A DNA stretch of 64,000 nt from Escherichia coli 042 (GTDB lineage Bacteria; Pseudomonadota; Gammaproteobacteria; Enterobacterales; Enterobacteriaceae): the NCBI RefSeq assembly GCF_000027125.1, contig NC_017626.1, one strand, 5' to 3'. Below, in pieces: positions 31,105-33,542 of this stretch; positions within the stretch are counted from its first letter, which is position 1; every line of letters starts with the position of its first letter. Under the pieces are notes generated by a model that did no database searches, had not been told where the DNA came from, and saw nothing but the letters and a program-made list of their open reading frames with translations. A program made the translations under genes and the position numbers.

Positions 31105-31308
31105 ATGAGCAGCTTATTTTTAACCGAAGATGAATTGCTAATATTAACGGGCTGCAAATATGCAAGCCACCAGCGAAAATGGTTAATGGAAAACGGGCTT
31201 CCGTTCTATACCAATCGTAGTGGCAAACCGATTGTCAGCCGGGATCTATTTACCTGCAATAAAACTTTACCACCACGCGAGGTAGAGCCGAATTTTGGTG
31301 CGATCTGA
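31105..31308 (+). CDS. xis: excisionase-like protein
   Basis: 67 aa ORF immediately upstream of and overlapping integrase start. Confidence 0.5.
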   Translation: MSSLFLTEDELLILTGCKYASHQRKWLMENGLPFYTNRSGKPIVSRDLFTCNKTLPPREVEPNFGAI

Positions 31309-32333
31309 TGGGAAGACGAAGGAAAAATCCTGAACACGAAAAATTACCTCCAAATGTATACCCAAATAAATATAGTTATGTATGGAAACCAACATCCAGA
31401 GAATCTGTCACACTAACCGCCATCAAGGATGGTTTAGCTGCTTTATGGAAAAAGTATGAGGAAACTGTAAATAATCGCGATCGTGCAATGACATTCGGTC
31501 GCTTGTGGGAAAAATTCCTCGCCAGCGCCTATTACAGTGACCTTAGTCCAAGAACACAAAAAGATTATCTGCAACATCAAAAAAAGTTGCTTGCCGTATT
31601 CGGTAAGGTACCAGCGGATTCCATAAAACCAGAACACATCCGTCGATACATGGACAAAAGAGGGGAGCAGAGTAAAACGCAAGCCAACCATGAAAAAAGC
31701 AGTATGTCCCGTGTTTACAGTTGGGGGTATGAGCGAGGGTACGTGAAGGCTAACCCATGTGCAGGTGTAAGTAAATTCAAGGCCAAAAACCGCGAACGAT
31801 ATGTAACCGACAAAGAATACCAGGCAGTATTAAGCGTTGCACCTCTTCCTGTTTTTATCGCAATGGAAATTGCCTATCTGTGTGCAGCGAGGGTTTCCGA
31901 TGTGTTATCGCTGAAATGGGAACAGATTGGAAACGACGGGATATTCATCCAGCAAGGGAAAACCGGAAAAAAACAGATAAAAGCATGGAGTCCACGATTA
32001 CAGGCAGCGATCGAAAAAGCAAAACAGTTACCAAAATCTGCCTATGTGATCAGCAATCAATACGGCAACCGATATATGTACAAAGGCTTTAACGAAATGT
32101 GGGTAGATGCAAGAAATCGTGCTGGAAAAATTTCAGGTATTTTAACCGACTTCACCTTTCATGATCTGAAGGCGAAAGGAATTTCAGACTATGAAGGAAG
32201 CAGCCGGGATAAGCAACTTTTCTCTGGTCACAAAACCGAAGGGCAAGTGCTAATCTATGACAGGAAGGTTAAAGTTTCACCAACACTTGATGTCCCGTTA
32301 CCTGAAAATATTCCAAGAAAATATTCCAAGTAA
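31308..32333 (+). CDS. prophage tyrosine integrase (site-specific recombinase)
   Basis: 341 aa; lies 50 bp from 3' end of tRNA-Ser; tyrosine recombinase architecture. Confidence 0.8.
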   Translation: MGRRRKNPEHEKLPPNVYPNKYSYVWKPTSRESVTLTAIKDGLAALWKKYEETVNNRDRAMTFGRLWEKFLASAYYSDLSPRTQKDYLQHQKKLLAVFGKVPADSIKPEHIRRYMDKRGEQSKTQANHEKSSMSRVYSWGYERGYVKANPCAGVSKFKAKNRERYVTDKEYQAVLSVAPLPVFIAMEIAYLCAARVSDVLSLKWEQIGNDGIFIQQGKTGKKQIKAWSPRLQAAIEKAKQLPKSAYVISNQYGNRYMYKGFNEMWVDARNRAGKISGILTDFTFHDLKAKGISDYEGSSRDKQLFSGHKTEGQVLIYDRKVKVSPTLDVPLPENIPRKYSK

Positions 32334-32385
32334 TTCCAAGTGTGATTTTTGTCACTGACTTAATGATGTGTAAGTGATTGAATTT

Positions 32386-32475
32386 TGGCGGAGAGAGGGG
32401 GATTTGAACCCCCGGTGGAGTTGCCCCCACTCCGGTTTTCGAGACCGGTCCGTTCAGCCGCTCCGGCATCTCTCC
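32386..32475 (-). tRNA. serU: tRNA-Ser (serU-like, anticodon CGA)
   Basis: Reverse complement GGAGAGATGCCGGAGCGGCTGAACGGACCGGTCTCGAAAACCGG...GGTTCAAATCCCCCTCTCTCCGCCA with long variable arm. Confidence 0.85.
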
Positions 32476-32568
32476 GTTCAGATGGTTGCCATGATGCCAG
32501 GAAATTTGGCATTTTAACAGTCCCTGTCCGTGCAATTTTGTTCAAGTGACGAGTTTGCGAGCAAAACG

Positions 32569-33366
32569 ATGATTAAGTGGCCCTGGAAAGTACAAGAATC
32601 AGCACATCAAACTGCCCTTCCCTGGCAGGAAGCACTATCGATCCCCCTTTTAACGTGTCTGACAGAACAGGAACAAAGCAAATTGGTCGCTCTTGCCGAA
32701 CGTTTTTTACAGCAAAAACGGCTTGTTCCTTTACAGGGCTTTGAGCTGAATTCATTAAGAAGCTGCCGGATAGCACTTCTATTTTGCCTGCCCGTTCTGG
32801 AGTTAGGACTGGAATGGCTGGATGGTTTTCATGAAGTCTTAATTTATCCTGCGCCATTTGTGGTCGATGATGAATGGGAAGACGATATCGGTCTGGTGCA
32901 TAACCAACGTATTGTTCAGTCAGGTCAGAGCTGGCAGCAAGGGCCTATCGTTTTGAACTGGTTGGATATACAAGATTCTTTTGATGCTTCTGGTTTTAAC
33001 CTGATTATTCATGAAGTCGCTCATAAGCTGGACACCCGTAACGGCGATCGCGCCAGCGGAGTTCCCTTTATTTCGTTGCGTGAGGTTGCTGGCTGGGAAC
33101 ACGATCTTCATGCTGCAATGAACAACATTCAGGAAGAAATCGAATTAGTTGGTGAGAATGCGGCGAGCATTGATGCTTATGCTGCCAGTGATCCTGCTGA
33201 ATGTTTTGCCGTACTTTCTGAATATTTCTTTAGCGCCCCAGAACTTTTTGCTCCTCGTTTCCCTTCATTGTGGCAACGTTTCTGTCAATTTTATCAACAA
33301 GATCCTTTGCAGAGACTGCATCACGCTAATGATACAGACTCGTTTTCGGCGACGAATGTTCATTAA
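32569..33366 (+). CDS. mtfA: Mlc titration factor A (MtfA), zinc-dependent peptidase
   Basis: 265 aa from MIKWPWK...; HEVAHKLD zinc motif; position between serU and asnT as in E. coli. Confidence 0.85.
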
Positions 33367-33466
33367 TTAACAACTTTGCAGATTAATTAACCAATTGAAA
33401 TGGCTTATGAAATTTAGTGTTGACAGACAAGGTACCGCTAAGTAATATGCGCCCCGTTCTCACGAT

Positions 33467-33542
33467 TCCTCTGTAGTTCAGTCGGTAGAACGGCGGACTG
33501 TTAATCCGTATGTCACTGGTTCGAGTCCAGTCAGAGGAGCCA
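33467..33542 (+). tRNA. asnT: tRNA-Asn (anticodon GUU), HPI attachment site
   Basis: TCCTCTGTAGTTCAGTCGGTAGAACGGCGGACTGTTAATCCGTATGTCACTGGTTCGAGTCCAGTCAGAGGAGCCA. Confidence 0.9.

Follow-up and report, generated by a model that had tools for sequence, protein, structure and literature searches.

Two tRNA-anchored elements on either side of mtfA in Escherichia coli: a lambdoid prophage at serU and the HPI at asnT

In E. coli a serU island and the HPI have been described about 1 kb apart, and the segment between them is called 'inter-PAI region A' (Messerer et al. 2017, PMC5521745; Desvaux et al. 2020, PMC7545054). In this species a truncated, non-mobile HPI type is found in about 99% of HPI-positive strains, and the spread of the HPI is attributed to homologous recombination that takes in its flanks as well (both PMC5521745). 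Lambdoid prophages in serU are known from STEC O121:H19 and O145:H28, and prophage-in-prophage nesting has been reported for a serU prophage (PMC8767318, PMC7067040). For the capsid-encoding satellites termed cf-PICIs, six chromosomal attB sites are listed (bioRxiv 10.1101/2022.09.08.507074).

The locus analysed here lies in a stretch of 64,000 nucleotides (the window). It is like the pair formed by PAI VII-536/PAI-CFT073-serU and the HPI (PAI IV-536/PAI-CFT073-asnT) in its tRNA anchors, in its mtfA islet of about 1 kb and in the truncated, non-mobile type of HPI. What occupies serU differs from strains 536 and CFT073: it is a lambdoid prophage (GC 0.48) and not the 22-27-kb TcpC island (38%). 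With the STEC serU prophages it shares the attachment site, whereas no stx or effector genes were noticed in it and its late mosaic is unmatched at 80% or more in 5,426 genomes. The arrangement is very probably the product of two unrelated integrative elements, each placed by a tyrosine recombinase in the 3' end of its own tRNA gene.

The core islet and the limits of the elements

The coordinates of all features are collated in Table 1. By BLAST comparison with K-12, collinearity with the order zinT-yodB-serU-mtfA-asnT-yeeJ is limited to positions 32371-33543 (1,173 bp), and homology on the asnT side stops at 33543. In K-12, yodB and yeeJ are the direct neighbours of serU and asnT, and the DNA of the window beyond these limits is missing from the serU-mtfA-asnT region, so that the flanks are not core genome. 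The GC content is 0.463 in the islet, 0.48 in the prophage and 0.585 in the HPI (33544-64000). The product of mtfA matched its family model with E=1.8e-162 and 538.9 bits (cut-off 400); the gene is 98% identical to the K-12 copy and is the sole protein-coding gene of the islet. Its true start (32569) was taken from the PGAP annotation of a relative that has one base difference over positions 31000-35200 of the window. A scan of the islet for promoters and terminators gave nothing above the shuffled expectation, except for a plausible asnT promoter (promoter-like site at 33420-33448).

The serU and asnT genes diverge, so that the 3' end of each faces away from mtfA, and elements that target tRNA 3' ends therefore accumulate on the outer sides. 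Because both elements lie there, the 1,173-bp core with serU, mtfA and its promoter, and asnT and its promoter is untouched. The preliminary description had placed a prophage to the left of serU and the HPI to the right of asnT, with one housekeeping gene between them. This layout was confirmed: the integrase and lambdoid genes adjoin the serU 3' end, a P4-type integrase followed by ybtS through fyuA lies beyond asnT, and mtfA alone separates the tRNA genes. The interval that had been given for the region, 31308-33542, is accurate, its limits being the start of the integrase gene and the end of asnT. None of the three elements (the prophage, the satellite nested in it and the HPI) has its distal end within the window, and att repeats were read in the relatives GTEN_97 and NZ_OZ501612.1.

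A public 'phage' record, ON470583.1, extends through serU, mtfA and asnT into the HPI integrase.

Table 1. Features of the window in order of position, with strand and basis of assignment.
Feature	Position	Strand	Basis or remark
cf-PICI-like satellite inside prophage terL	1-10955	-	Pfam; continues past the left edge of the window
Satellite prohead protease (Peptidase_S78)	471-1031		Pfam
Satellite major capsid protein (Phage_capsid)	1086-2255		Pfam
Satellite SSB	3677-4102		Pfam
Satellite primase (DUF927)	4313-6433		Pfam
Satellite Bro-N protein	8383-8961		Pfam
Satellite P4-type integrase	in ORF 9560-11983, probable ATG 10783	-	Pfam Arm-DNA-bind_3 and Phage_integrase
Lambdoid prophage, part in the window	10956-32370		Annotation of GTEN_97 and of the potC-site relative; NCBIfam, Pfam, Rfam
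Prophage terL, N-terminal 343 codons	10956-11983		Interrupted by the satellite; homology stops at 10956
Prophage tRNA-Arg and tRNA-Met	16639-16891		tRNA search
Prophage exonuclease	28605-31046		Annotation
DUF4224 gene	31105-31308		Directly upstream of the integrase
Prophage tyrosine integrase, 341 aa	31308-32333	+	Pfam Phage_integrase (1.7e-11) and Phage_int_M
Three tandem ATTCCAAG motifs	32310-32340 (starts 32310, 32323, 32333)	+	Candidate arm-type integrase sites, P' arm
Phage-supplied serU 3' part and 15 bp downstream, integrase-proximal att (attL, lambda convention)	32371-32447	-	Allele pattern
tRNA-Ser(CGA), serU	32386-32475	-	ARAGORN; Rfam, 57 bits
mtfA (Mlc titration factor/DgsA anti-repressor)	32569-33366	+	NCBIfam NF011939 equivalog
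tRNA-Asn(GTT), asnT	33467-33542	+	ARAGORN; Rfam, 72.6 bits
HPI (yersiniabactin)	33544-64000		99.968% identity to the annotated GTEN_97 HPI; runs past the window
HPI P4-type integrase, 420 open codons	33704-34966	+	Pfam Arm-DNA-bind_3, Phage_int_M and Phage_integrase
ybtS (salicylate synthase)	35160-36464	-	TIGR03494, E=2e-205

The serU prophage, its integrase and the hybrid tRNA

In addition to the genes in Table 1, terS, HNH, Q, RusA, hok/sok, replication genes, cI/cro-type regulators, DicF/dicB and the lysis genes (holin, lysozyme, Rz) are present in the prophage; ydfC and hokD are also among its genes of the Qin/Rac-like cryptic-prophage kind. Rfam matches were obtained for sok, DicF and STnc100. 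From the position of its gene, the DUF4224 product is a putative excisionase. The satellite separates this part of the prophage from the head and tail genes, which fall outside the window and were observed in relatives. In GTEN_97 (99.83% identical over positions 20314-35999) the early region is the same, and the prophage has a full set of head, tail and lysis genes with terL intact and without the satellite. None of the 5,426 complete E. coli genomes matched at least 80% of positions 1-25000; by this measure (at least 80%, 5,426 genomes), the late region of the prophage is a mosaic without a counterpart elsewhere.

The serU gene of the window is a hybrid, its 5' part being chromosomal and its 3' part derived from the phage. 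The phage copy is recognised by the diagnostic bases G (32417) and C (32428). The G/C allele was found in 5/5 occupied serU sites, and the A/T allele in 2/2 empty sites and in the distal partial copy. The crossover was narrowed to 19 bp (32429-32447), which correspond to the anticodon stem-loop. The two substituted bases, at positions 48 and 59 of the tRNA, pair with each other in the variable arm, and the cloverleaf fold is kept; owing to the compensatory G48:C59 pair of the phage copy, tRNA-Ser stays functional. The G/C allele was counted in 1,178 genomes and the integrase-serU junction in 1,143, these being two separate tallies. At the far end of the GTEN_97 prophage, 62 nt of the serU 3' part recur as a partial copy with K-12 alleles (12034-12095 of its distal locus), followed by a K-12-type flank. 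A look for direct repeats of the tRNA 3' ends at the distal ends of both islands had been proposed as a check; in GTEN_97 such a repeat was found for the prophage, with its partial serU copy, and not for the HPI, for which no second asnT 3' end is present.

The prophage integrase reads toward serU, and its ORF ends 52 bp short of the serU 3' end. In every record checked it is annotated by PGAP as 'frameshifted' (31308-32358). When one 13-bp repeat is deleted, the frame moves to a TGA at 32356-32358; the 'frameshift' thus touches just the last ~10 residues, past the catalytic Tyr. The possibility that the repeat (32305-32330) is a recent frameshifting duplication was dropped, since the repeat is universal in the sampled genomes, including those with STEC serU prophages, and is part of a two-arm motif array. 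An integrase allele without the repeat was found in none of the genomes sampled. The repeat was reinterpreted as putative attachment-site architecture. The three ATTCCAAG copies are the only ones in the 64-kb window, with about two expected by chance anywhere, and the 17-kb GTEN_97 distal locus contains two copies only, 40-105 bp from the distal junction. As judged from motif clustering alone, the array probably consists of arm-type integrase sites. The overlap of these candidate sites with the 3' end of the integrase gene would account for the PGAP call, and the labelling of this integrase lineage as a pseudogene probably misleads.

The attP site of phage lambda consists of a P arm with P1/P2, a core and a P' arm with P'1-P'3. 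The serU site is like lambda attP in that three tandem repeats lie on the integrase-proximal arm and two on the opposite arm; unlike in lambda, the candidate array overlaps the 3' end of the integrase coding sequence, and both the motif and the integrase are unrelated to their lambda counterparts. Integrases that target tRNA genes reportedly cross over in the anticodon loop, as Williams is said to have described in 2002. The serU integrase is like those enzymes in its crossover within the anticodon stem-loop and in the phage-borne replacement of the tRNA 3' part.

Isolated phages (mEp332, ev099, PhiR70_1) contain serU-like 77-bp segments, which were considered as attP copies and dropped as evidence. 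The mEp332 segment is the distal junction between prophage and chromosome and includes about 340 bp of host DNA of the K-12 type, and the mEp332 integrase is 22% identical to the serU integrase of the window. The record 'Escherichia phage SerU-LTIIb' has the same attachment site. The C-terminal sequence of the integrase of the window was also found in O157:H7 and O145:H28 genomes.

The nested satellite and the HPI

The satellite mentioned in the preliminary description was borne out by capsid, primase and integrase genes inside the prophage terL. Its integrase marks the right end of the element. In another strain the same satellite again lies in terL, but of a different prophage that occupies the potC site; there the full element, which lacks tail genes, carries terS, terL, portal, protease, capsid and connector genes, and the terL pieces overlap by 14 bp, an imperfect target repeat that flanks the satellite. 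The element is like the cf-PICIs (EcCIEDL933 family) in its integrase, regulators, primase, full head-packaging module and lack of tail genes, part of this set being in the window. Unlike the published cf-PICIs, it has a prophage terL gene as its site.

The truncated TerL and the satellite integrase are joined in a single 807-aa ORF (9560-11983), in which 58 open codons form a linker ahead of the probable integrase ATG at 10783. From this reading frame, a coupling of the satellite to its helper may be imagined, although we consider it quite improbable: late terS-terL expression could drive the satellite integrase and so time excision and the repair of terL. Because the satellite occupies terL, packaging by the helper would be blocked until the satellite excises, and because the TerL-integrase frame is continuous, late transcription and translation of the helper could express the integrase. 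If true, satellite excision would be tied to the late phase of the helper; this would concern the satellite and not the serU/asnT layout.

In the HPI the gene order is int, ybtS, ybtX, ybtQ, ybtP, ybtA, irp2, irp1, ybtU, ybtT, ybtE, fyuA. The yersiniabactin cluster ybt/irp/fyuA is complete, positions 32499-64000 being 99.968% identical to GTEN_97 over 31,503 bp, and the GC content of 0.585 lies in the range given for the HPI (~57-60%, higher than the E. coli backbone). The 17 bp with which asnT ends (33526-33542) are what we take to be the HPI att core known from the Yersinia HPI, and the integrase frame opens 161 bp past asnT. The start codon of this integrase is ATA, whereas APEC E12053 and a related asnT integrase have ATG. 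The 61-mer that surrounds the start is the same in 847 of the 2,010 genomes that carry it. The listing of a 347-aa ORF as a truncated integrase was dropped, as the frame is open from 33704 and the start codon alone differs.

In the fyuA-asnW interval of GTEN_97, no copy of the asnT 3' end (14-25-mers, ≤2 mismatches) was found, and yeeJ is 5'-truncated. The far end of the HPI, with a right border without the 17-bp direct repeat, fits the truncated type. The ATA start, and in the near-identical relative the lack of a distal repeat and the shortened yeeJ, suggest that the HPI is now fixed in place, and it may be unable to excise. ATA can start translation weakly, so that expression of the HPI integrase remains conceivable.

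Independent origin, alternative explanations and meaning

The course of events was very probably as follows. The prophage recombined in the anticodon stem-loop of serU, as is shown by the 19-bp interval, and swapped the 3' 62 nt of the tRNA gene for its own copy; the satellite later inserted into the prophage terL; and the HPI used its own P4-type integrase to insert at the 17 bp that end asnT. Occupancy of the two sites was determined in the 5,426 complete E. coli genomes as raw counts, with no phylogenetic correction. The serU site is empty in 3,855 genomes and contains this integrase in 1,143 (21%), and asnT is empty in 2,675 and followed by a P4-type integrase in 2,467, with an island in ~37-45%. 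The preliminary description had counted at least three independently acquired elements. This view is upheld by the GC contents of 0.48 versus 0.585, by the GTEN_97 prophage without the satellite, by the occurrence of the satellite elsewhere and by the serU and asnT occupancies, which look roughly independent. 'Independently acquired' is meant as the origin of the elements and not as their route within E. coli.

That route bears on the alternative of a joint arrival, in which both islands came on one chromosomal fragment by conjugation or transduction, followed by homologous recombination in the flanking core. The HPI and the serU and pks islands are described as spreading with neighbouring backbone, and the region is cited as a recombination hotspot (PMC5521745); moreover, the HPI seems unable to move alone, given the ATA start of int and the relative without a distal repeat. 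Against this, both sites are occupied in 487 genomes (9.0%, raw counts), within the 7.8-9.6% predicted for independence from 21% x 37-45%. The same HPI allele is found both where the prophage is present and where it is absent, ETEC1749 combines the same integrase-serU junction with an empty asnT, and the unmatched mosaic late region points to separate phage dynamics. Joint arrival is regarded as unlikely. The TcpC-encoding serU pathogenicity island (PAI VII-536/PAI-CFT073-serU) shares the insertion site and the HPI neighbour in strains 536 and CFT073, but identity of the serU-side element with it was rejected as having practically no chance: the gene content is lambdoid phage throughout, the GC content is 0.48 versus the 38% reported for the PAI, and no TIR/TcpC gene is annotated in matching records.

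More room is left for the serU-side element being a decayed, immobile remnant of a cryptic prophage, which is possible though doubtful. The 'frameshifted' integrase in all records checked, the terL split by the satellite and the Qin/Rac-like genes dicB, DicF, ydfC and hokD/sok would suit such a remnant, whereas the frame change is universal, hits only the last ~10 residues and coincides with the candidate arm-site array; precise excision of the satellite would restore terL, and the GTEN_97 prophage has complete head, tail and lysis genes. The reading as two unrelated elements, each inserted by its own recombinase, is preferred.

The layout is genuine, yet it is frequent and known from the literature, being a common polymorphism at an established integration hotspot of E. 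coli, and the prophage and the HPI side by side have no evident joint function. The current picture of E. coli islands is unchanged, and the value of the finding is mainly one of bookkeeping: the exact limits of the islet, 32371-33543, prevent mis-delimiting of the elements, and the hybrid tRNA, the 19-bp crossover and the candidate arm sites show how the tRNA keeps its function.

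Core segment between the two islands

When the region of K-12 MG1655 (order zinT-yodB-serU-mtfA-asnT-yeeJ, without any insertion) was compared with the window by BLAST, alignment was limited to positions 32371-33543 (1,173 bp, 98% identity), which span from 15 bp past the 3′ end of serU to 1 bp past the 3′ end of asnT; the window DNA outside this stretch was absent from the K-12 locus. The flanks are therefore not core genome, and the preliminary description, which had placed a prophage left of serU, the yersiniabactin high-pathogenicity island (HPI) right of asnT and the single gene mtfA between them, was correct in its coordinates and gene assignments. 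Two of the four tRNA genes found in the window by ARAGORN belong to this segment. Its GC content was 0.463, against 0.48 for the prophage and 0.585 for the HPI.

Features of the serU-asnT region and of the adjoining islands
Feature	Position	Strand	Location	Support
STnc100	15753-15942	-	inside prophage	Rfam
sok antitoxin RNA	20552-20727	-	inside prophage, beside hokD	Rfam
DicF	27909-27960	+	inside prophage	Rfam
Exonuclease	28605-31046		left of serU	
DUF4224 gene	31105-31308		left of serU	
Tyrosine integrase, 341 aa	31308-32333		left of serU	
tRNA-Ser(CGA), serU	32386-32475	-		ARAGORN, confirmed by Rfam
mtfA	PGAP start at 32569		between serU and asnT	NCBIfam equivalog NF011939, E=1.8e-162
Promoter-like site for asnT	33420-33448			
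tRNA-Asn(GTT), asnT	33467-33542	+		ARAGORN, confirmed by Rfam
HPI P4-type integrase frame	33704-34966		right of asnT	
ybtS, salicylate synthase	35160-36464		right of asnT	E=2e-205

The two tRNA genes are divergent, with the 3′ end of serU facing the prophage integrase and that of asnT the HPI integrase. Elements that target tRNA 3′ ends consequently gather on the outer sides, and serU, mtfA, asnT and their promoters remain intact; this geometry fully accounts for two islands separated only by mtfA. The public record ON470583.1 (Escherichia phage vB_EcoS-689R5, "phage, partial genome") runs through serU, mtfA and asnT and 1,044 bp into the HPI integrase; its prophage is mis-delimited, with core DNA of the host and a piece of a second island taken in.

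Prophage and HPI in the closest relative

The best-matching genome, GTEN_97, differed from the window by one base over 31000-35200 and was 99.83% identical over 20314-35999 and 99.97% identical over 32499-64000. Its left element is annotated as a lambdoid prophage (cI/cro-type regulators, dicB, hokD, Q, RusA, lysis genes, terS/terL, HK97-type head, lambda-like tail), and its HPI as int, ybtS, ybtX, ybtQ, ybtP, ybtA, irp2, irp1, ybtU, ybtT, ybtE and fyuA. The early prophage region of the window (20314-32370) was 99.8% identical to GTEN_97; the late region is a mosaic unlike it, including tRNA-Arg(TCT) and tRNA-Met at 16639-16891, and window 1-25000 had no match with at least 80% coverage among 5,426 complete E. 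coli genomes (best 78% at 96.9%). STnc100, sok and DicF are typical of Qin/Rac-like lambdoid prophages.

Of the distal att repeats sought in GTEN_97, the one for serU was found, as a 62-nt partial copy followed by K-12-type flank, and the one for asnT was not: the asnT 3′ 14-25-mer did not recur beyond fyuA, and K-12 homology was picked up again inside yeeJ. This state agrees with a published account in which ~99% of HPI-positive E. coli have a truncated HPI that is not self-transmissible (PMC5521745), and from its sequence the HPI here appears to be fixed in place. The HPI integrase frame comprises 420 open codons and begins with ATA (33704-33706), whereas ATG stands at this position in an APEC HPI and in a related asnT integrase; the surrounding 61-mer, which 847 of the 2,010 genomes with the region share exactly, marks a common, widespread HPI subtype. 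At the distal prophage end of GTEN_97 (positions 11364-11587 of the 17-kb locus examined), yodB is missing: where K-12 has ~1 kb from zinT to the yodB-serU spacer, GTEN_97 has 223 bp.

Exchange at serU and the prophage integrase

At 32417 (G) and 32428 (C) the window serU departs from that of K-12. The two substitutions correspond to tRNA positions 59 and 48, which pair in the variable-arm stem; the A-U pair of K-12 is replaced by G-C without loss of the cloverleaf. The G/C allele was present in 5/5 occupied sites examined, and the A/T allele in 2/2 empty sites and in the distal copy of GTEN_97, so the phage supplies the 3′ part of the tRNA. The window allele occurred in 1,178 genomes, versus 1,143 with this integrase-serU junction. 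The exchange point must lie within 19 bp (32429-32447), from the second substitution to the end of the repeat, in the anticodon stem-loop. Integrases that target tRNA genes classically recombine in the anticodon stem-loop. A fossil distal serU-prophage junction was also observed in the isolated lambdoid phage mEp332 (PV340541.1, 43622-44156), in which ~340 bp of K-12-type chromosome (yodB-serU spacer and partial serU) are fused to prophage-end DNA; the junction is 96% identical to that of GTEN_97, the mEp332 integrase only 22% identical to that of the window. Phages ev099 and PhiR70_1 gave the same 77-bp match as mEp332.

The integrase of the serU prophage was labelled "frameshifted" by PGAP in every record examined. 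Behind this flag stands a 13-bp tandem repeat at 32305-32330, removal of one copy of which shifts the stop to TGA at 32356-32358, the PGAP pseudogene end. The repeat alters only the last ~10 residues, downstream of the catalytic Tyr, and was common to all matches sampled out of 1,151 genomes with a hit, O157:H7 and O145:H28 among them. The 8-mer ATTCCAAG has only three copies in the 64-kb window, all at the int end (32310, 32323, 32333), and only two in the distal GTEN_97 locus (12135, 12200), 40-105 bp from the distal junction. These copies are candidate arm-type sites for the integrase in a lambda-like layout, the P′ arm having three and the P arm two. On the int side the copies stand in tandem, and this array (32305-32340) shares sequence with the int stop region, which explains the PGAP call across this integrase lineage; if the copies are arm sites, the flag for a pseudogene probably reflects an annotation artefact.

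Nested satellite, frequency and standing

Window 1-10955 codes for a prohead protease, major capsid protein, SSB, DUF927 primase, Bro-N protein and P4-type integrase, and homology to the intact terL of GTEN_97 ends at 10956. In NZ_OZ501612.1 the complete satellite (~15.3 kb; own terS, terL, portal, protease, capsid and connector genes, no tail genes) lies within terL of a prophage at another chromosomal site, potC. The terL pieces there share a 14-bp imperfect repeat (TTGGTAAAAAAATT and TTGGTAAGAATATT) flanking the satellite, so precise excision would rebuild terL. This copy and the satellite-free prophage of GTEN_97 support the satellite as a third, separately mobile element; the observation of two tRNA-anchored islands is confirmed, and its interpretation as at least three acquired elements supported. 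A single 807-aa ORF (9560-11983, minus strand) begins with TerL residues 1-343, which cover the ATPase and the first part of the nuclease domain, and continues across 58 open codons into the P4-type integrase, whose own start is probably the ATG at 10783.

Population counts were made on the 5,426 complete genomes. The serU junction was empty and K-12-like in 3,855 (71%) and adjoined by this integrase in 1,143 (21%); the asnT-yeeJ junction was empty in 2,675 (49%) and asnT was adjoined by a P4-type integrase in 2,467 (45%), the HPI int start region being present in 2,010 (37%). Some 450-490 of the 2,467 asnT junctions were only 60-90% identical, indicating a different integrase and hence a second island family at the same site. 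In NZ_CP135649.1 (6455-9756), asnT adjoins a different P4-type integrase, which contains an internal stop and matches the junction query at ~86% identity; an IS5-family element and a remnant come next, and yeeJ is gone. At least 80% of the 4.2-kb two-junction query was matched in 487 genomes; this 9.0% with both sites occupied falls within the 7.8-9.6% expected under independence and gives no sign of serU-asnT linkage (raw counts, kinship ignored).

The serU-mtfA-asnT two-island arrangement is already known. The literature places the serU island, HPI and pks island side by side as PAIs at serU, asnT and asnW; inter-PAI region A, ~1 kb long, separates the serU island from the HPI, and the whole region is called a recombination hotspot (PMC5521745). 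PAI-serU is tabulated immediately ahead of PAI-asnT for strains 536 and CFT073 (PMC7545054). In STEC O121:H19 and O145:H28, lambdoid prophages occur repeatedly at serU (PMC8767318, PMC7067040), and one report describes an element integrated within a serU prophage (PMC8767318 / PMC7067040). For cf-PICIs (capsid-forming phage satellites), only chromosomal attB sites are given in the paper describing them (bioRxiv 10.1101/2022.09.08.507074); the satellite in terL, with a frame running from TerL into its integrase, is the sole mildly unusual item. Since neighbouring serU/asnT islands and serU prophages are published, the window represents a new combination of known pieces in a known hotspot.
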